Notes: a model not told the origin generated them from the letters alone. DNA of 38,530 nt from an uncultured Clostridia bacterium (GCA_947570515.1 CANOUM010000001.1:1-38530); one strand, 5' to 3'; shown: positions 4,675 through 38,530, counted from the stretch's first letter. Numbers and translations are program-made.

Positions 4675-5735
4675 ATCAGCTTGAAGTCGTAGATCCTAAC
4701 TTTCGCCTGAGACAGGTCGGCGGCAGACAGGATGTGGTTTTTTATGATGTACGGCAGGCGCCCTTTCAGATATATGGCCTTCTGAGGCCATCGTGCTCAG
4801 AGGAAGGTTTTTTGCGGATGCCTGCAGAGATTGCCGCGCAGGTGAGCGAAGGCGTTTCCTATCTCAATACGAATACGGCAGGAGGCCGCGTACGCTTTGG
4901 GACGGATTCACCGTATGTTGCGATCCATGCGGAGCTTTATCATATAGGCAGAATGCCGCATTTTGCTTTGAGCGGAAGCGCTGGTTTTGATCTGTATTAT
5001 CAGCGGGAAGGTAAGGAATGCTACGGCGGTACGTTTATGCCGCCATTTGATCTGCAGAGTTCTTATGAAGCGCTTTTAGAGCTTCCGGACGAAGCCGCCG
5101 GGCAGGATATTACGATCAATTTTCCGCTTTACAGCGGTGTAAAAGAATTGAGGATTGGTCTAAAGGCGGGCTGCAGCGTCACAACGGCGGCAGGATATGC
5201 GCATGGACCGGTTGTATTTTATGGGTCGTCCATTACGCAGGGCGGATGTGCTTCCCGGCCGGGGAATGCTTATCAGAGCATTTTGTCGCGTGCGCTGGGG
5301 ATGGATTTTTGCAATCTTGGATTTTCAGGCAATGCGAAGGGCGAGGAAACGATGGGCACGTATATAGCAGGCCTTGCGATGGCGGCCTTTGTGTATGATT
5401 ATGATCACAATGCGCCGAGTGCAGGGCATTTGCAGAGGACGCATGCACGGATGTTTAGGCAGATTCGCAGGAGACAGCCGGAATTACCGGTGATCCTGCT
5501 TTCGCGGCCTAAATTGGTGCTGAATGAAGAGGAGAAGATGAGACGGGCGATCATTCGTGCAACATATGAGGAAGCTTATGCGCGGGGGGATCGAAATGTA
5601 TACTGGATAGATGGGAGCACGATGCTGCGATTAGGAGGAGATAGTGCAACGGTGGATGGGTGTCATCCTAATGATCTGGGCTTTATGTGTATGGCGGAGG
5701 GGCTCAAGGAAATTTTGCAAAAGGTACTTTTATAA
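4671..5735 (+). CDS. SGNH/GDSL-type hydrolase with GxDLY N-terminal domain
   Basis: GFDLYY (GxDLY domain), block I FYGSSITQG and block V DGCHPND. ATGA start/stop overlap with the upstream Nudix gene. Confidence 0.8.
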   Translation: MNQLEVVDPNFRLRQVGGRQDVVFYDVRQAPFQIYGLLRPSCSEEGFLRMPAEIAAQVSEGVSYLNTNTAGGRVRFGTDSPYVAIHAELYHIGRMPHFALSGSAGFDLYYQREGKECYGGTFMPPFDLQSSYEALLELPDEAAGQDITINFPLYSGVKELRIGLKAGCSVTTAAGYAHGPVVFYGSSITQGGCASRPGNAYQSILSRALGMDFCNLGFSGNAKGEETMGTYIAGLAMAAFVYDYDHNAPSAGHLQRTHARMFRQIRRRQPELPVILLSRPKLVLNEEEKMRRAIIRATYEEAYARGDRNVYWIDGSTMLRLGGDSATVDGCHPNDLGFMCMAEGLKEILQKVLL

Positions 5736-20684: not shown

Positions 20685-20722
20685 AGATAACCTCCGTGAT
20701 AAAATGAAAACGGACTTTACAG

Positions 20723-20765
20723 GTGACAAGACAGATGCTTGACATATGCTGAATATAGTGTATAA
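20723..20765 (+). promoter_or_regulatory. niaR promoter with overlapping imperfect inverted repeat (candidate NiaR operator)
   Basis: TTGACA (20738-20743), 16-nt spacer, TATAAT (20760-20765). TGACAAG (20723-20729) N7 CTTGACA (20737-20743) overlaps the -35 element. Confidence 0.5.
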
Positions 20766-22465: not shown

Positions 22466-23008
22466 TTATTTTTTTACCGGGCTGTGCGTTAATTTTTTGG
22501 ATAAGTACAGAACAAGATCATCATCATTTTTACAATCCGTATAGGGCTCGCATACCTCCTCCAGATACCATACGCCTGTGCCATCCGGGATATAGCCGCG
22601 TTTTACATACAAGCGCTGGGCGCTTCCGTAGCCGCTGTGCATGCCCACTCCCAAATAAACGGTGTCAGCATAGCCAGCTGCAACCTGCTCAGCCACATCC
22701 ATCAGCTTGCTTCCAATGCCTTTGCAGCGGTATTTTTCCAGTACGCCAAAATCAACAATCTCCGGATATCCTTTGTATGCAAAGGATCCCCACTCTGAGT
22801 TAGGATATACGTTGATATAGCCGGCAATATGATGACGATATTCGGCCACCAGCGTTGTTGCTTTGCCTTCTGCCTGATGACGCAGTCGCATACGGTATTT
22901 TTCAATATCAGCCTGCCAGCCCTGGGCAATTTCTTCGTCGGTGATGATCTGGGCATCTTCAGGCTGCAGGTCACGAACCAGAATATCTTGATCTTGATAA
23001 TAAATCAT
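22466..23008 (-). CDS. GNAT family N-acetyltransferase
   Basis: Acetyl-CoA motif A YRCKGIGSKLM (R/QxxGxG/A). 180 aa. AAGGAG RBS. Confidence 0.8.
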   Translation of the reverse strand: MIYYQDQDILVRDLQPEDAQIITDEEIAQGWQADIEKYRMRLRHQAEGKATTLVAEYRHHIAGYINVYPNSEWGSFAYKGYPEIVDFGVLEKYRCKGIGSKLMDVAEQVAAGYADTVYLGVGMHSGYGSAQRLYVKRGYIPDGTGVWYLEEVCEPYTDCKNDDDLVLYLSKKLTHSPVKK

Positions 23009-23053
23009 GGGTTTCTCCTTTACGACAAGTTTACTTCAAAAAATCAAACGGAT

Positions 23054-23276
23054 ATGTACGCAATTCTTTTTTTGCGTACATGTAAGTATAAGAAATAAAA
23101 GCATTTATGTACGCAGTTTCCCACTTTGCACACATATAACAAGCAATATATTGAAAAGAGTTGTATGCAATAGACGGATTGCGTACATGTGATGTATCAG
23201 TTTTTAAGATGATGTGCATGCAAATCGGCTTACTGCGTACACATGACTGCCCAAATCATACAGAGGCATGTACGCA
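23054..23276. repeat. Array of six copies of ATGTACGCA / TGCGTACAT in alternating orientation
   Basis: Forward copies at 23054-23062, 23107-23115 and 23268-23276. Reverse copies at 23073-23081, 23180-23188 and 23234-23241 (the last is an 8/9 match). Confidence 0.9.
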
Positions 23277-23460
23277 AAAAGTCCATGAACGATTCTTACT
23301 GCCATTTTTACTTAAATATCGCAAGTTTGCTGAAAGCAAGCTTGGAGCGCAGTACAAGTATTTGATTAGCCAAATTATATCTTACTGCGCTTAGTATATC
23401 ATATGAAAGATACGATTTCTACGATAGTTTTGAATATAACAGTTGTTAGTCTGTATACCC

Positions 23461-23489
23461 TTGCAATTTGAAGGTAAACACGGTATGAT
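23461..23489 (+). promoter_or_regulatory. Candidate sigma-A promoter for the C-N hydrolase operon
   Basis: TTGCAA (23461-23466), 17-nt spacer, TATGAT (23484-23489). AAGGAGG RBS at 23517-23523. Confidence 0.5.
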
Positions 23490-23533
23490 AGAGCAGAAAG
23501 TTTGGCTCAGCTGACAAAGGAGGACAAAACCAA

Positions 23534-24358
23534 ATGAAAGATCAAGTCAGGTTAGCGCTTATTCAGTTTGAAAGTAAACTTGGCAGAGTAGCTGAAAACC
23601 GTGAAAAAGCCGAAAAGATGATCCGCACGGCGGCCAATAAAGGGGCGGAGCTCATCTGTCTGCCGGAGCTGTTTAGTACGGGATATAATTTAGATATAAT
23701 TGGAAGAGAGATCAATCAGATGGCGGAGCCGCTCAGCGGCCCGACCATCATCAGGATGCAGAAGCTCGCAAAAGAGCTTGGTGTCTTTATTGTAGTTCCC
23801 ATCGCCCTGCAGCTTGCAGAAGGCAGGCCCTTTAACAGTGCCGTTTTCATCGGCGATCAGGGAGAGATCATCGGTACATACAGTAAGTGTCATCTGTTTG
23901 AGACAGAGCGTCTGTATTTTCAGGAGGGAAATGAATTTCCGGTATATGAGACAAGTCTTGGAAAAGTCGGCATTATGATCTGCTTCGATGCGGGATTTCC
24001 TGAAGCAGCCAGAACGCTGGCACTTCGAGGCGCGGAGATCATCCTGTGTCCGGCGGCATGGCGGATTCAGGACACGCGTATGTGGGAGCTGAATATGCCG
24101 CAAAGAGCGCTGGAGAACAGCTGCTATGTAGGAGCAGTCAATCGTTTTGGACATGAAGATACGCTTTATATGGGGGGATTTTCTATGGCCTGCGGCCCGG
24201 AGGGGGACGTGCTCGAAAAGCTGGAGCAGGAACAGGAGGATATTTTGTATTGCACGCTGGACGGTCAGCGGCTGGCAAATTATCGGGCTGATGGCGGACC
24301 CTATCTGCCCTACCGCCGTCCGGAGCTTTATACAGAGGTAAGCAAACAGGAGGATTAG
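23534..24358 (+). CDS. Carbon-nitrogen hydrolase (nitrilase superfamily) family protein
   Basis: Glu-Lys-Cys triad contexts: LICLPELF, YSKCHLF and GIMICFD. 274 aa. Confidence 0.85.
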   Translation: MKDQVRLALIQFESKLGRVAENREKAEKMIRTAANKGAELICLPELFSTGYNLDIIGREINQMAEPLSGPTIIRMQKLAKELGVFIVVPIALQLAEGRPFNSAVFIGDQGEIIGTYSKCHLFETERLYFQEGNEFPVYETSLGKVGIMICFDAGFPEAARTLALRGAEIILCPAAWRIQDTRMWELNMPQRALENSCYVGAVNRFGHEDTLYMGGFSMACGPEGDVLEKLEQEQEDILYCTLDGQRLANYRADGGPYLPYRRPELYTEVSKQED

Positions 24359-27828: not shown

Positions 27829-27913
27829 ATGGATAGAGAAAAAAGAGTAAGGATTGGTAAATTATCACATCTTACCGGCGTGAAGACAGGAACCATCCGT
27901 TTTTATGAAAAAA
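27829..27913 (+). pseudogene. MerR-type HTH remnant (first ~28 codons only)
   Basis: MDREKRVRIGKLSHLTGVKTGTIRFYEK matches the start of the MerR N-terminal helix-turn-helix. After the A6 tract (27908-27913) the frame yields Arg/Lys-rich sequence unlike any MerR protein. Confidence 0.5.
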
Positions 27914-27934
27914 GATGGAGGAGAGGAAGAAAAT

Positions 27935-28834
27935 ATGAATATACAGGATGCGGAAATCTACTTGAAAAAGAATACAAAAAAACAGCTTACAGGAGGAAAA
28001 AGCGGGGCTTTCGTGTATGATATCGGAGGAAGATATGTTTTAAAACAAGTGTATAAAGCAGCGCTTGAAAATGATGAATTATATGAGGCATACCAAAAAG
28101 AAGCCCAGTGGTATGTCTGCAAAGGAGCAGGGCTCAGCTGTCTGCCGGAGGTGCTTGATCTTAGAAATACGAAAGATGAGATTTCCATTTTGATGAAACA
28201 GTACCGCGTACTTTCAAGGCAGAAGATGAATATGAGTTTATTGCAGAAAATTATGAGGGCGCTTGCGCTCGTTCATACCACGAAAATACCGGAGCTGTTA
28301 AAGAAAGAGCAAGCTGGCAGGCAGCTTCTTTCACAAGAGCAGATTCGTATTTCTGCAGATGGGTTGTATGCTGTACTAAAGGAGCATCCGGGTATATTCG
28401 ACGGGAGGCCATTAGAACATATTGCAGAAACTATCAACAAGATCATTTCCTGGCATGGTTTAGAAGAGAATGTGCTGATTCATGGTGATTTTCATTGGGA
28501 TAACCTGCTGATGGATGATCAGGGCAGGATCATCATCTGTGATTGGCAGGGAGTTGGAGTGGGGGCAGCATCAGGGGATCTGAGCTTTTTCCTGGGAAGG
28601 CTGAGAGGAGAGGGAATACAGCTGAAAGAACAGGAGATTCTTGATATCTATGGGCAGGAGATGAGGCAGATTTCCGGAAAAAAGATTACAGGTGAAGAGC
28701 TATATAGACATATTCAGGCCGCCAATGTGATAACTTCCTTCACCTGCTGGTATCAATATCTCCAAGGGAGCAGTGAAGAAAGGGTCAGAGAAATTTATGG
28801 AAAAATGGCGGCAGACAGCGGCTGTTTCTGCTGA
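27935..28834 (+). CDS. Aminoglycoside/choline-kinase-like phosphotransferase (APH family fold)
   Basis: Catalytic loop HGDFHWDNLL (HxDxxxxN) followed by ICDWQGVG. GGAGGAGAGGAAG lies upstream of the ATG at 27935. The alternative start at 27905 is in the same frame. Confidence 0.8.
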   Translation: MNIQDAEIYLKKNTKKQLTGGKSGAFVYDIGGRYVLKQVYKAALENDELYEAYQKEAQWYVCKGAGLSCLPEVLDLRNTKDEISILMKQYRVLSRQKMNMSLLQKIMRALALVHTTKIPELLKKEQAGRQLLSQEQIRISADGLYAVLKEHPGIFDGRPLEHIAETINKIISWHGLEENVLIHGDFHWDNLLMDDQGRIIICDWQGVGVGAASGDLSFFLGRLRGEGIQLKEQEILDIYGQEMRQISGKKITGEELYRHIQAANVITSFTCWYQYLQGSSEERVREIYGKMAADSGCFC

Positions 28835-31087: not shown

Positions 31088-31124
31088 ATACATGCCATGT
31101 ATGCAAAAAAAGAATTGCACCATG
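31088..31124. repeat. Palindromic element related to the 23054-23082 element
   Basis: 31096-31118 (CATGTATGCAAAAAAAGAATTGC) matches the reverse complement of 23060-23082 at 22 of 23 positions. ATACATG-c-CATGTAT (31088-31102) adds a further arm. Confidence 0.85.
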
Positions 31125-31140
31125 GTAGAAATGGAGAAAA

Positions 31141-34642: not shown

Positions 34643-34920
34643 CGTTGTTATACCTTCCTTGCTTACCGCTTCGCAAGGATAGAAGCGGTAGTTTTGCTGT
34701 CAGCATAAAAAAGGACGTCTCCTTTTCATAATAAAATAGTACTATATAGAACTTATTTTGTCAAGGAGTAAAATTAGTAAAGGGTAAAAAATAGGGAAAA
34801 GAAAGAATAAGATTGTAGAATTGTCTAATCTTGTATGATAAAATATGTATGTTGAAAATCCAAGACATGCATTTTAGAGAGCAATAGGTGTAATCAATAA
34901 TGAGTTGCGGAGGATTAGCA

Positions 34921-35400
34921 ATGATTAGAAAAGCAGAAGAAAGAGATTTACAACGGATAGCCGAAATCATTATATTTGGGAAACGTGTCGCATATTGTTC
35001 TATTTTTCAAAATGATATGGTGTCATTTAACGAGCTGAGAGTCGTAGCTCTTTATAATGAATTATATAATGATTCAGAGAAATGGAAAAATATGCTGGTG
35101 TATGATGATGGAATTGTAAAAGCGGTTATCAACTATATTGATACGGAAAATAAAGACACTATTGAAATACTTGATTTTTATGTGGAGCCATTTTTTAAGG
35201 GAGAGGGAATAGGAAGAAAGCTGATAAATCAATTATGTAATAAAGTAAAAAGGCAATATAATACCATTATTTTGTGGGTAATTAAAGACAATATTTCGGC
35301 AAGAAAATTTTATGAACGGAATGGATTTCAAAGGACGGACAATGAGCGTTTGATTGAAGGAACAAATAAATTAGAGATGCAGTATGTCAGATATTTGTAA
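34921..35400 (+). CDS. GNAT family N-acetyltransferase
   Basis: Motif A FKGEGIGRKLI. GGAGG sits 8 nt before the ATG at 34921 (the listed start at 34900 is less likely). Confidence 0.8.
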   Translation: MIRKAEERDLQRIAEIIIFGKRVAYCSIFQNDMVSFNELRVVALYNELYNDSEKWKNMLVYDDGIVKAVINYIDTENKDTIEILDFYVEPFFKGEGIGRKLINQLCNKVKRQYNTIILWVIKDNISARKFYERNGFQRTDNERLIEGTNKLEMQYVRYL

Positions 35401-35464
35401 TGGGATGATATCTAAATACAAAGTTTAAGTCTGAAAATGAGAAAGTTTAGGAGTGTGAAAAGGT

Positions 35465-35701
35465 ATGTTTAGTTTAAAGAAAGAACAGAGAAAAAAGAAT
35501 ATATTTCTAATTTTATCCATTATTTCTGCATTTGTATTTATTGCAGGAGTGATGTGTACCATCATGGGAGAATTAAGTCCGGTACAATTTATAATCAATG
35601 AAAGTCCCATTAAATTAGTTGTTCTCCCTGCGCTTATATTTTTTGTAGCATTTGCATTATATAAAAATAGTAAAAAAGCAATAGAAGAAAACACAAAGTA
35701 A
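35465..35701 (+). CDS. Hypothetical small membrane protein (2 predicted TM)
   Basis: 78-aa ORF with two hydrophobic stretches flanked by Lys-rich ends. Weak RBS and no recognisable family. Confidence 0.4.
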   Translation: MFSLKKEQRKKNIFLILSIISAFVFIAGVMCTIMGELSPVQFIINESPIKLVVLPALIFFVAFALYKNSKKAIEENTK

Positions 35702-35744
35702 TTTTAATCTAAATTTGAAAATCGCAATTTTATAAGTGGTTATT

Positions 35745-35810
35745 GCTCCTCATAGGGTTTCAATAAAATCCTTCAAAAGTCTTGAAAATAAAGGATTTAT
35801 CGGAATGTGT
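35745..35810. repeat. Junction repeat unit copy 1 (A-like CTCATAGGG plus B module)
   Basis: 35781-35800 is identical to 37262-37281 (CTTGAAAATAAAGGATTTAT). Hairpin AAATCCTT (35766-35773) / AAGGATTT (35791-35798). Confidence 0.85.
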
Positions 35811-35861
35811 TCGCTTTACCCCTTTATATAATTTCACACAAGTTTATTCTTACTCTGATTG

Positions 35862-35888
35862 CTTATAAGGGCAAAATAAAGGGCAGTT
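35862..35888. repeat. Junction repeat A module copy (CTTATAAGGGCAAAATAAAGGGCAGTT)
   Basis: Similar to 37202-37222 and 37802-37826. Contains tandem ATAAGG / ATAAAGG. Confidence 0.7.
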
Positions 35889-35998
35889 AATCTGATGCTA
35901 TCTATAGAATGTATAAGTCAAATATGCATGCAAGCGTAGATATTTTTATCATTGTTTGGAACGAATGAAAAACTAAGAAATATGAGGAGGAATAAAAA

Positions 35999-37024
35999 AT
36001 GCAACTACGAATATCGAGTATACCCATAATGCTTGAATATTTATCAAAAATGAATGCAGAATCCGTCGATAAAGCTGTGGTTGAAAAAATTTTCGAGCAT
36101 GAAGATTATCAGTTCGAAATGAGGCGGTACGGTTTACACTCTGCGGACCCGCTTATATCTTATTTTTCACACCTTAGAAGCATCAAGGTGGGGGACATTC
36201 CTGATTTAAGCAATGAACGAAAAAGTGCATTAAGAGATAAGCATAAACTGTGGTTAGACTGTTCAACTAATCTACAAAAATACTACAATCGTTATGAAAA
36301 GGTAAAGCATATTCTTTGTGATGACAATATTCAATCTCTACAGCATAAGCTCTTTGCTGCATTTCCAAATGAAGTTGCCATAAACGATATAAGTATTATA
36401 TCAACACTAAGTTTTGGACCTTCCTTCGGATATGTTTATGAGAATGCATTGCATATAGATTTGTTTGGTATTGAAGATATCTGCACAATTGAAGAGATGC
36501 CATACATTATTCTTCATGAGATGCACCATCTACAAGTTCAAAAACTAATTGGCAGTTATCATTCTTTCACTCGGAATTTTGGTTTACTGGATGACTACAT
36601 ATTTAGATTTAGTGGTGAGGGCTTGGCAATTAAGTTCTGCAATAACGCCGAAGGCGTTGTATCAAAGAAATTGGATAACCATTTGAATGCCAATATAGGT
36701 ATTCCTGCAATGTCCATACTTAACAATCATTTTAAGGAGCATTTCAATCTTTTCAATGATACAATTAAGAGAATTAAACAAAATTCAATTACTGCAAGTG
36801 AAATTGATGAACAGTTCAAGTCTTATTGGTGGAATCCATACCTTTATAAAGATGAGAATCCATTTCTAACACAAACGCCAATATACAGCTTTGGAAATGA
36901 AATTTTTGGATGTATTTTTGATGCTTTTGGAATGGAAATATTGTTTGAATGTTTTTATAACCCCGCTAAAGTTATTGAATATTTTAATAAGACAAACTGT
37001 GGGTATATTATTTCGGAAACATAA
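35999..37024 (+). CDS. Putative Zn-dependent protease-like protein with HExxH motif (DUF2268/DUF5700-like)
   Basis: 341 aa with the LHEMHH motif. GAGGAGG RBS. The family name is from memory and tentative. Confidence 0.55.
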   Translation: MQLRISSIPIMLEYLSKMNAESVDKAVVEKIFEHEDYQFEMRRYGLHSADPLISYFSHLRSIKVGDIPDLSNERKSALRDKHKLWLDCSTNLQKYYNRYEKVKHILCDDNIQSLQHKLFAAFPNEVAINDISIISTLSFGPSFGYVYENALHIDLFGIEDICTIEEMPYIILHEMHHLQVQKLIGSYHSFTRNFGLLDDYIFRFSGEGLAIKFCNNAEGVVSKKLDNHLNANIGIPAMSILNNHFKEHFNLFNDTIKRIKQNSITASEIDEQFKSYWWNPYLYKDENPFLTQTPIYSFGNEIFGCIFDAFGMEILFECFYNPAKVIEYFNKTNCGYIISET

Positions 37025-37201
37025 TCTCGGAAGAGGTAAAAAATACTCTTCAAATAGTGAACCTGCTCTTCATAAAGCGAAATACTCTATTGTACAAATT
37101 GCAGGTTTGTGCGATGAGTGCACTTCGTTCGCAAATTTCGAAGGCTTATTACTCTCTGAAAGAGTATTTTGTATTCAGATAAATAAATTTTCTTGTTTTG
37201 A

Positions 37202-37291
37202 CTCATAAGGGCAGAAATAAGGAAAAATACATAAGGTTGGGAAACCAAATGGTCGAAATTCCTTGAAAATAAAGGATTTATTGCAATGTGT
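37202..37291. repeat. Junction repeat unit copy 2 (A module with three ATAAGG, then B module)
   Basis: ATAAGG at 37205, 37217 and 37231. The B module 37254-37291 ends in the ATG at 37286. Confidence 0.85.
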
Positions 37292-37807
37292 AAAATAGTA
37301 AAAATGATTGAAATTCACGGTGTAAATGCACATAAAGCTTTTACTAAAACGCGTGTGGGATGTAGAGGAATTGTAATAAAAGATTCTCGTATGCTTATTT
37401 CACACGAAGTAAATGCTGATTATTATTTGATCCCGGGTGGTGGTTTGGAAGCAGGGGAAACACCCGAAGAATGTTGTATTCGTGAGATTTGTGAAGAAAC
37501 AGGATATATTGTAAAACCTAGTATTCATTTTCTTACGATACATGAATACTACGAAGAGTACAAATTTATAAGCCACTACTTTCTTTGTGATATTATAGGG
37601 GAATCAGAGCAAAACTTAACCGCCGATGAAATCAAACGAGGATTGATTCCCGAATGGATAAGTCCAGATAAAATGCTTGAACTATATTCGAAGCATGGTG
37701 ATTTTGCAATACCTAACCAGAAGAAGCAAGGAGCATATTTGCGGGAGTATATTACACTCAAAGAATATCTCAGAAAATCCAACATTATTTCACCTTTATT
37801 TCTGTAA
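37286..37807 (+). CDS. NUDIX hydrolase
   Basis: Nudix box GGLEAGETPEECCIREICEETGY. The start at 37286 lies inside repeat module B. The alternative ATG at 37304 lacks an RBS. Confidence 0.8.
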   Translation: MCKIVKMIEIHGVNAHKAFTKTRVGCRGIVIKDSRMLISHEVNADYYLIPGGGLEAGETPEECCIREICEETGYIVKPSIHFLTIHEYYEEYKFISHYFLCDIIGESEQNLTADEIKRGLIPEWISPDKMLELYSKHGDFAIPNQKKQGAYLREYITLKEYLRKSNIISPLFL

Positions 37808-37924
37808 TAAAGGCGGTAAGGCAGTTCTGGCTATTCAAATCCTTGAGCCTGCTGCAGGGCATCAAACCCCGACATTGTTATATAGAACGATCGCAAGAAT
37901 CCTGAAGGGATTTCTTGCAATGTA
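37802..37924. repeat. Junction repeat unit copy 3 (A module overlapping the Nudix stop, GC-rich insert, degenerate B module)
   Basis: A: CTGTAATAAAGGCGGTAAGGCAGTT (37802-37826). B: GCAAGAATCCTGAAGGGATTTCTTGCAATGTA (37893-37924). Confidence 0.75.
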
Positions 37925-37985
37925 AAAAAGCTGTATCTGAAAAATTTAAAACGGTTATTAGACATCCGATGAAAGAGATATAATT

Positions 37986-38530
37986 ATGAAACTAATACAA
38001 ATCATGGCACTTGCCGTACTTGCGCTATTCTATACCGCATACTTTACTAAAATGATTTTACAACGCCGAAAGGGTGTGAAAACAGACCAAATCGGCAAAG
38101 GCAGAAAGCCCCGAAAGGTACTTGTGACTGAGATACTGATGAAGCTCGCAACCTACTCTATTGTCATTGTGGAAGTGGTCAGTATCGTCATGAATTTCCG
38201 TATGTGGAAATCCTCTTATGCGCGGATTGGCATAGGCGTTGCAGCTCTTGGCGTTCTTGTCTTTATCGTAGCTATGGTAACGATGAGGGATAGCTGGAGA
38301 GCGGGCATACCGGAAAAAGATAAAACCGAGCTTGTAACAACGAAAATATACCGTATCAGCCGCAACCCCGCTTTTCTCGGTTTTGATGTAATGTATCTTG
38401 GTATGCTAATTGCATTTTTCAATTACTTGCATTTGATTTTTGCGTTTTACGCCATTATAATGCTTCATTTGCAGATATTACAAGAGGAAAAGTATTTGAC
38501 CGAAGCCTTTGGAGAGAAATATACCGAATA
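37986..38530 (+). CDS. Isoprenylcysteine carboxyl methyltransferase (ICMT)/phospholipid methyltransferase family membrane protein, 3' end outside window
   Basis: My own translation is open from the ATG at 37986 to the window edge: MKLIQIMALAVLALFYTAYF...TTKIYRISRNPAFLGFDVMYLG...LQEEKYLTEAFGEKY, the typical ICMT-family core. Confidence 0.75.
   Translation, partial: MKLIQIMALAVLALFYTAYFTKMILQRRKGVKTDQIGKGRKPRKVLVTEILMKLATYSIVIVEVVSIVMNFRMWKSSYARIGIGVAALGVLVFIVAMVTMRDSWRAGIPEKDKTELVTTKIYRISRNPAFLGFDVMYLGMLIAFFNYLHLIFAFYAIIMLHLQILQEEKYLTEAFGEKYTE

Follow-up and report, generated by a model that had tools for sequence, protein, structure and literature searches.

Few systems are known that pair a host-resident gene with genome-specific palindromic repeats, and the best known of them are the REP and REPIN sequences of Proteobacteria with the RAYT transposase (PMC3116915, PMC5581495). 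A second relevant case comes from Neisseria, where the NIME arrays carry a short dyad, dRS3 (ATTCCC-N8-GGGAAT), that flanks RS elements (PMC1797815). Here, we describe a palindrome array in a 38,530-nt stretch of DNA from an uncultured Clostridia bacterium (GCA_947570515.1, CANOUM010000001.1:1-38530), a mouse-gut member of the Lachnospiraceae; this whole stretch is referred to as the window. The array lies in a 525-bp region (23009-23533) between a GNAT gene and a C-N hydrolase operon. It is strictly periodic, it is present in multiple copies in this organism, it is missing from the sister species, and its build is that of arrays found in other genomes beside a gene for a ~250-aa protein, the C-terminal domain of which models as a nuclease fold. 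With moderate confidence, we read it as an orphan that belongs to a genome-specific family of palindrome arrays with multiple copies, of a class that is linked to the nuclease-fold gene elsewhere, and not as a dedicated operator.

Among described systems, REP/REPIN-RAYT and NIME resemble the array most closely, with conserved arms around a free centre, genome specificity, and a cognate enzyme that is linked or has been proposed. Like REP and REPIN sequences, the array is made up of short palindromes in extragenic DNA, with stems that are conserved and loops that vary; the sequence is genome-specific, apparently has many dispersed copies and forms regularly spaced clusters, and in both cases there is a single- or few-copy protein gene with cognate repeats adjoining it. 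A REP is an extragenic palindrome of 20-40 bp in many copies, and the palindromes described here are extragenic, measure 28-29 bp and are accompanied by at least 5-10 more contig pieces per metagenome. In contrast to REP and REPIN sequences, the linked protein is modeled with a PD-(D/E)XK fold instead of being an HUH/Y1 (IS200-like) transposase, the arms are just 9-10 bp, and arrays with a strict 53.5-bp period stand upstream of the gene instead of on both sides of it. The dyads have no GTAG-type flank, or any other tetranucleotide in common at their flanks, the copy number is modest (roughly 5-10 contig pieces), and the host is a Firmicute. No RAYT (Y1/HUH) gene flanked by repeats is present in the window.

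NIMEs are alike in that short dyads, each with a free centre of 8 bp, are strung together with AT-richer repeat segments between them, and in that the resulting arrays occupy syntenic intergenic sites and flank genes. The G+C content along the array in the window runs in a corresponding wave, from 43% in the arms to 38% in the spacers and 30% in the 25-bp linkers. However, the arms (TGTAYGCAA / TTGCRTACA) and the host are unrelated to dRS3, and the fixed 53.5-bp period differs from the 19-214 bp of the RS spacers, which form more than 100 families. The enzyme proposed for dRS3 is a transposase/recombinase of a filamentous prophage (PMC1797815), compared with a candidate nuclease-fold protein here, and NIMEs are reported as Neisseria-specific. 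Overall, the arrays are set apart from both REP-RAYT and NIME by the fold of the putative enzyme, by a period fixed at 53.5 bp and by their position upstream of the gene.

Two further kinds of element share part of this organization. The pneumococcal BOX elements and the mycobacterial MIRUs are dispersed intergenic elements of variable tandem units of ~45-77 bp, often in transcribed spacers. They resemble the array as dispersed intergenic elements with internal tandem units, but their units are direct repeats and not arm-conserved dyads, we know of no linked cognate protein gene for either, and the number of units in the present array is constant over four assemblies. The F plasmid centromere sopC consists of twelve 43-bp units, each with an inverted repeat. 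As with sopC and iterons, tandem units that carry dyads stand beside a gene for a protein expected to bind them; in contrast, the setting here is the chromosome, with multiple loci, neither par nor rep genes occur in the window, and the linked protein is nuclease-like. In limited searching of the literature, we found no description of a module of arrays and a nuclease of this kind.

Structure of the Array

The original prediction had reported six copies of a 9-mer in this region, and its positions hold: ATGTACGCA occurs exactly at 23054, 23107 and 23268 (forward) and at 23073 and 23180 (reverse), with an 8/9 copy, GTGTACGCA, at 23234 (reverse). The division of the copies by their flanks (GCAAT, GCAAA and GCAGT), their spacings (19, 34, 73, 54 and 34 nt) and the related CTTACTGC(G) at 23229, 23295 and 23381 were reproduced as well. 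The sequence ACTTGTACTGCGC is indeed present on the opposite strand, but it extends over 23347-23359, one base more than the 23347-23358 given before. The excess of the 9-mer is far beyond chance, as had been claimed, with five exact copies against 0.19 +/- 0.39 expected and 0/100 shuffles reaching five. All five lie in 23054-23276, and the exact ATGTACGCA is absent from the rest of the 38.5-kb window. The 525 bp are non-coding, without an open reading frame (ORF) of more than 77 aa and with ORF translations that have no relatives. Used as bait for paralogous arrays, ORF translations from the array returned nothing, or only two unrelated low-complexity proteins.

What had been missed is that the strong 9-mers are each paired with a weaker inverted partner 8-9 nt away, which gives four dyads of 28-29 bp with the consensus aTGTAcGCAA-N8/9-TTGCGTACAt, and one lone arm. 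The start-to-start distances of the resulting units A-E are 53, 54, 53 and 54 bp. The parts of the array are as follows:

23022-23392 (371 bp), no strand: inserted repeat segment, delimited by BLAST and alignments against the sister species (L040); paralogous contigs match 23040-23392
23054-23081, no strand: dyad A, ATGTACGCAA-ttcttttt-TTGCGTACAT (N8), perfect 10-bp arms
23107-23135, no strand: dyad B, ATGTACGCAG-tttcccact-TTGCACACAT (N9), degenerate right arm
23161-23188, no strand: dyad C, TTGTATGCAA-tagacgga-TTGCGTACAT (N8), degenerate left arm
23214-23242, no strand: dyad D, GTGCATGCAA-atcggctta-CTGCGTACAC (N9), outermost pair altered in both arms (G...C)
23268-23277, plus strand: lone left arm E, ATGTACGCAA, in phase at +54, partner arm lost
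23295-23392, no strand: decayed tail with CTTACTGC(G) copies, GCGCAGTACAAGT at 23347-23359 and the inverted repeat 23346-23354 / 23383-23391

Each unit is built of inverted arms of 9-10 bp (TGTAYGCAA / TTGCRTACA) around a free spacer of 8-9 bp, followed by an A/G-rich linker of ~25 bp. The insert amounts to about seven units of 53.5 bp, the first 4.5 of which are well preserved and the final 2.5 decayed. In the tail, paralogous contigs align at 23316-23374 and 23357-23392, which fits the right boundary of the insert. The hexamer self-match sum of the array at 52-55 bp is 10, compared with a mean of 0.95 and a 99th percentile of 8 in the null distribution. Tandem Repeats Finder reported no repeat in the region, because the units have diverged and conservation is limited to the arms. 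A search of the region against Rfam gave no match, the best hit being RAGATH-23 below threshold (E = 0.39).

Elsewhere in the window there is no second dyad of the same kind, except for a degenerate one that lies 7.6 kb further downstream, beyond the operon block, where a spacer of 73 bp separates the EamA gene from the radical-SAM/sulfatase genes:

31094-31125, no strand: lone degenerate dyad, CATGTATGCAA-N7-TTGCACCATG

As the same spacer is only 23 bp in the sister species, this dyad represents an insertion of ~50 bp, or roughly one unit. No paralogs of it were found at 80% likeness.

A Dispersed Family in the Same Organism

Mouse-gut metagenomes were examined through their Logan contigs, which were aligned to positions 23030-23330 of the window at 80% likeness. 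In the six metagenomes that contain the locus, further contigs align to the array, with 5-10 per run in X1, X2, X3, X4 and X6 and a single one in X9, a shallower run. Four runs of the same studies without the locus yielded no array contigs, and a control locus in the window gave no paralogs by the same procedure. The paralogous contigs align over 36-127 nt at ~80-88%, across arms and linkers, and then continue into unlike DNA (e.g. 23054-23180 with 19 mismatches and 23068-23171 with 18). Their loose ends hold additional arms, such as TTTTGCGTACAA, CATGTATGCAATTTC and TTTGCATGCA, and one paralog displays the 54-bp period directly, as a joint from 23083 to 23064 with 34 extra letters. At 23116 (A) and 23131 (T), both in dyad B, the paralogs show the consensus arm letters. 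The depths of these contigs are near that of the window contig, and the same paralogs recur in runs of at least five studies. Since the aligned stretches include the linkers, the copies share descent and not merely a binding motif. In this organism, the array belongs to a dispersed family with multiple copies.

Three other assemblies of the species are 100% identical over the array and have it in the same orientation, a fourth overlaps its right edge only, and no variation in the number of units was seen among four assemblies.

A scan for the dyad TGTACGCAA-N8/9-TTGCGTACA gave 35 loci in GTDB genomes and 63 in JGI metagenomes, none of them from this organism, and 0 loci in viral contigs, where 5 were found with the Y/R pattern. 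We rejected these matches as single hairpins, unrelated repeat families or chance (e.g. an rpoC-rpsL spacer from rumen Clostridia). A 30-mer from the flank of one paralog was absent from the viral and JGI collections, and blastn of the array against plasmid and phage collections returned no match. In a Cenarchaeum metagenome-assembled genome (MAG), positions 4231-4419 of L020 form a perfect 54-bp tandem in which each unit carries TGTACGCAA-N9-TTGCGTACA. Its arm sequence and period are like those of the window, and its spacer has the N9 length of dyads B and D; we treat it as a coincidence.

Insertion Beside Conserved Promoters

The sister species (L040-L043; hydrolase 89% identical) has the same gene order, with 27 bp in the place of positions 23022-23392 of the window. 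The array is flanked by divergently transcribed genes, as had been described, and two promoters lie to its right:

22466-23008, minus strand: GNAT gene, left flank of the array
23393-23421, minus strand: candidate GNAT promoter, TAGAAA-17-TG-TATACT, at the position of TTGCAA-17-TATACT in the sister species
23461-23509, plus strand: promoter and leader of the C-N hydrolase operon, TTGCAA-17-TATGAT and GGTATGATAGAGCAGAAAGTTTGGCT; context, outside the repeat
23534-24358, plus strand: CN_hydrolase gene, right flank; first gene of the CN_hydrolase-HAD-TauE-GH101-like operon

The probable GNAT promoter (-10 TATACT) is located to the right of the insertion site in the window and in the sister species alike. 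From this arrangement, the array appears to have been inserted within the presumed 5' leader of the GNAT gene, between its promoter and the ribosome-binding site. The window, L040 and L044 all have exactly the same hydrolase promoter, TTGCAA-17-TATGAT, and the same 26-nt GGTATGATAGAGCAGAAAGTTTGGCT. Both promoters are kept in the sister species, which lacks the array, and the array is not required for the conserved promoter architecture.

The 26-nt GGTATGATAGAGCAGAAAGTTTGGCT spans the -10 element and the early leader (window 23482-23509; L040 5998-6025; L044 247-274) and is unchanged across three species whose hydrolases are just 79-89% identical. It is a better candidate than the array for the real regulatory site of the hydrolase operon. 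Other repeats occur nearby in these relatives. In L040, three GCTGAA-N3/4-TTCAGC hairpins lie at 5100-5330, between the 3' ends of niaY and the GNAT gene, where the window has 89 bp. In L044, positions 1-200, upstream of the same hydrolase promoter, contain direct repeats with a 43-bp period (...CACTGAACAGTGTCAGTAAT...) that are unrelated to the dyads.

Arrays Upstream of a Gene for a ~250-aa Protein

L045 and L115 represent two relatives at a greater distance (hydrolase 68-69% identical). In both, a repeat-rich stretch and an ORF of 251/252 aa are located upstream of the same operon, and gene and array together occupy the position of the array in the window. The dyads of L045 read CCATGTAG-N15-CTACATGG, with the initial units 53.5 bp apart. 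Homologs of this ORF (40-99% identical over the full length) were found in unrelated neighbourhoods, and arrays stand upstream of the gene there as well:

L120, upstream of the gene: six units at 54/53/54 bp, TGTGCGCAA-N9-TTGTCGCACA
L118, upstream of the gene: six units, GTCACCCAC-N15-GTGGGTGA
L121, upstream of the gene: six units at 54.5 bp, CAGCATGCA-N11-13-TGCATGCYG
L122, upstream of the gene: five to six units at 54 bp, GGGTKTGCA-N-TGCAAACMC

In a hexamer scan, the strongest self-similarity upstream of the gene falls at 52-55 and 105-109 bp in five of the seven gene loci examined (L045, L118, L120, L121 and L122), with 75 matches at 54 bp in L120 and 22 in L121. Control intergenic regions gave 0-1; over 1427 null windows, a value of 8 marks the 99th percentile. 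Among the loci examined, the gene and the arrays are associated. Relatives in viral contigs that share only the C-terminal nuclease domain have no arrays. Many family members are found on contigs of 1-3 kb, as expected if flanking repeats break assemblies.

The array in the window shares the architecture of this class. Dyads A-D consist of inverted arms in the range of 8-13 bp, a non-conserved spacer and a purine-rich linker, and the array has the tandem period of 52-55 bp. The arms of L120, TGTGCGCAA / TTGTCGCACA, differ from those of the window by 1 letter on the left and 2 on the right. Among the linkers, that of the window is GTAAGTATAAGAAATAAAAG and that of a paralog of the window family GGTTAAGAAAAG, which the L118 linker GAAAGTTAAGAAAAG resembles. 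The arm sequence varies with the gene copy: the assembly GCA_052834405.1 encodes two diverged copies of the ~250-aa protein, L118 and L120 (60% and 40% identical to the L045 protein, respectively), and these paralogous genes have different arms. Conversely, the two arrays of L045 (3913-4290 and 11414-11735) share the CCATGTAG arms; the second is without a gene and lies between convergent genes. Together, they bracket the nuclease-like gene and the C-N hydrolase / GH101-like block (~7 kb), like repeat-flanked cassettes.

The family of the ~250-aa protein is characterized by the invariant motifs VRSKSE, YE, PDFT and WEHLG. It has no family match in Pfam, NCBIfam or the PDB sequences; its C-terminal 120 aa match the C-terminus of the PADLOC candidate PDC-S68 (E ~1e-33). 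A look-up of its clusters gave no sample accessions that would link the gene to the metagenomes of the window. In an AlphaFold model (pLDDT 83), an N-terminal helix is followed by a three-stranded sheet and a long helix, and a disordered linker then leads to a C-terminal alpha/beta domain. For this last domain, the best Foldseek matches have the restriction-endonuclease fold: those in the PDB are R2 RLE, VRR_NUC, TnsA and NucS (E 0.006-0.1), and those among viral models are phage homing, Vsr and TnsA-like endonucleases (E from 1e-4). The C-terminal domain models as a PD-(D/E)XK nuclease fold.

Proposed Role and Alternative Explanations

Taken together, these observations suggest that the array is probably a selfish or recombination-related element rather than a switch for the neighbouring genes. 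In such a scheme, the ~250-aa protein would recognize the arms of its own arrays, either by binding duplex DNA as a dimer or by binding hairpins extruded from it, and arrays without the gene, including that of the window, would be non-autonomous sites served in trans. REP sequences and their RAYT would be an analogous case, as would NIME arrays and a site-specific recombinase. The module would spread or promote recombination, and neighbouring genes would be affected only incidentally, for instance by a GNAT leader made longer and more structured. Binding and cleavage by the protein and spread of the arrays are inferred. Some units of L122 and L121, as well as dyad D of the window, are altered in both arms together, which hints that palindromy is maintained (as a hairpin or cruciform); unlike these, other units have uncompensated mismatches. 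More tentatively, the arrays and the ~250-aa protein, with its putative N-terminal DNA-binding module, coiled-coil-like helix and PD-(D/E)XK fold, might constitute an undescribed two-part system of Firmicutes. Such a system would recognize genome-specific arms and operate on arrays in cis and in trans, either as a selfish element that behaves like a homing or transposing one or as a recombination hotspot that flanks blocks of genes and exchanges them (the hydrolase/GH101-like operon of L045 is bracketed by two arrays), and the array in the window would then be an empty or non-autonomous site.

Several points weigh against this interpretation. The array in the window was placed in the class by its period, dyads, linker, near-identical arms and position, and not by alignable homology. 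The paralogous arrays are known only from aligned pieces and 30-nt loose ends of Logan contigs, and they were assigned to the same genome from co-occurrence and similar depth only. There is no homolog or remnant of the ~250-aa gene in the window (tblastn with 92 family members; best E = 0.007, a chance match of 23 aa), which makes its array an orphan, like that at 11414-11735 of L045. The periodic signal is weak or irregular in L115 and absent in L119. The Foldseek E-values for the nuclease fold are modest (6e-3 for the PDB, 1e-4 for viral models), and the N-terminal domain alone gave no significant Foldseek match, so that an AP2 or integrase arm-binding-like fold, considered for this domain, is unsupported. 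Finally, the arrays upstream of the ~250-aa gene could be merely its autoregulatory region.

The original prediction had offered three readings of the region: a cluster of REP-like palindromes, a multi-site operator, and an iteron or recombinase-binding array. The first comes nearest, as the array belongs to a dispersed multi-copy family and is absent at the orthologous site of the sister species. The operator fares poorly, as discussed below. A binding array for a recombinase, or in altered form for a nuclease, is possible, as arrays of the same build stand upstream of a PD-(D/E)XK-fold gene in other genomes and vary with it.

The strongest alternative, which we nevertheless consider unlikely, is a generic dispersed palindrome of the REP, BIME or BOX kind that is unrelated to the ~250-aa gene and was spread by slippage, recombination or a transposase such as RAYT; its similarity to the arrays beside the gene would then be incidental or a matter of convergence. 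The repeats are multi-copy and species-specific, with conserved stems and free loops, the ~250-aa family gene is absent from the window, Group 1 RAYTs have been reported in Clostridia (PMC5581495), and other relatives have hairpin clusters of an unrelated kind (L040 5100-5330 and L044). Nevertheless, the unusual 53.5-bp period and the build of dyad and purine-rich linker recur beside the gene at five or more loci, and the left arm of the window is one letter from that of L120. Moreover, a conserved flanking tetranucleotide of the GTAG type is lacking, and no Y1 transposase gene is encoded in the 38.5 kb.

An operator, in which a dimeric factor would bind cooperatively to four in-phase dyads and control the GNAT gene and/or the hydrolase operon, with the dyad at 31094 as another site of the regulon, is improbable in our opinion. 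It would account for the conserved arms and free spacers, for a 53.5-bp spacing of about five helical turns, for the location between divergent genes, and for the weak 31094 dyad upstream of a sulfatase-maturase operon. On the other hand, the linkers too are shared between loci at ~80%, and the sister species keeps the same promoters without any dyad; the hydrolase promoter and leader are retained without the array in two relatives. Measured upstream from the hydrolase -35, the lone arm is ~185 bp away and the nearest dyad ~220 bp, and in L045 two convergent genes have an array of the same class between their 3' ends. The only regulator encoded nearby, NiaR, has a different site of its own at 20724-20733, and no other regulator gene is adjacent.

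NiaR (YrxA) was also considered as the binder of the dyads and rejected. The core of the NiaR type I motif is TGT-N4-ACA (PMC2330245), whereas the TGT...ACA of the dyads are 20 nt apart. A real type I-like site, TGACAAGACA (the reverse complement of TGTCTTGTCA), is located at 20722-20735 of the window, with its core at 20724-20733, directly upstream of and abutting the -35 of the promoter of the niaR (HTH_11+3H) / PTS_EIIC_2 operon. As a guess, the PTS_EIIC_2 gene may encode the niacin transporter NiaY.

A role at the RNA level appears distinctly improbable; here the array would be transcribed, either on its own or within the 5' leader of GNAT, and the hairpins would serve in stabilization, processing or sequestration. 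The candidate GNAT promoter does lie beyond the array, both strands fold well (z = -4.3 and -5.2 against mononucleotide shuffles), and some units of related arrays show paired arm changes. However, the array belongs to no Rfam family, its loops are not conserved, and the mismatches of dyads B-D are not consistently wobble-compatible on either strand. The original prediction had proposed RNA-seq to look for small RNAs or processing sites; the single true RNA-seq run, X29, covers GNAT codons (22847-22999) and not the array, and runs X25-28 cover the whole window sparsely and resemble low-depth DNA.

Inversion between opposed copies by a recombinase is very improbable. The array does contain a perfect 14-nt inverted repeat (23069-23082 / 23267-23280, arms 184 nt apart) and several other inverted pairs, and long-read data had been suggested as a check. 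Nonetheless, the window, the three further assemblies across the whole array and the contigs of eight DNA runs all show a single orientation, although contigs may miss rare variants; no strand-change joints were seen in the contigs. In addition, the dyad spacers differ, which would not be tolerated by the crossover of a tyrosine recombinase, and the window encodes no recombinase.

A decayed CRISPR array, suggested by palindromic repeats of ~28 bp at regular spacing, is extremely improbable, as the repeat centres vary, the "spacers" are ~25 bp and homologous between loci, a CRISPR array would be expected to have a period longer than 53.5 bp, and the 38.5 kb contain no cas genes. A plasmid iteron or centromere array was likewise rejected, with housekeeping chromosomal neighbours, no rep or par gene, and no plasmid or phage match.

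Annotations should mark the array as repeat DNA and not as a regulatory site of the GNAT gene or the C-N hydrolase operon. Such arrays also explain the breaks in MAG assemblies at this place, where several contigs begin or end within the array. If the link to the gene is true, the PD-(D/E)XK-fold protein would be a second enzyme class tied to a genome-specific population of palindromic repeats. The differences in arms between gene copies, combined with a period near five helical turns, would then make the specificity of the protein for DNA directly testable. Furthermore, genes of gut Lachnospiraceae could be exchanged at the arrays that bracket glycan-use operons, a role already proposed for the NIMEs of Neisseria.

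Other Features of the Window

A gene for a kinase of the APH/EcKL family is located at 27905-28834, between the GH101-like and Fe-ADH_2 genes, and is absent in L040. At the end of the window, positions 34700-38530 have a G+C content of 29-38%, compared with ~50% elsewhere, and hold a GNAT gene, a small membrane ORF, a DUF5700 peptidase-like gene and a NUDIX gene; this segment may be foreign DNA.

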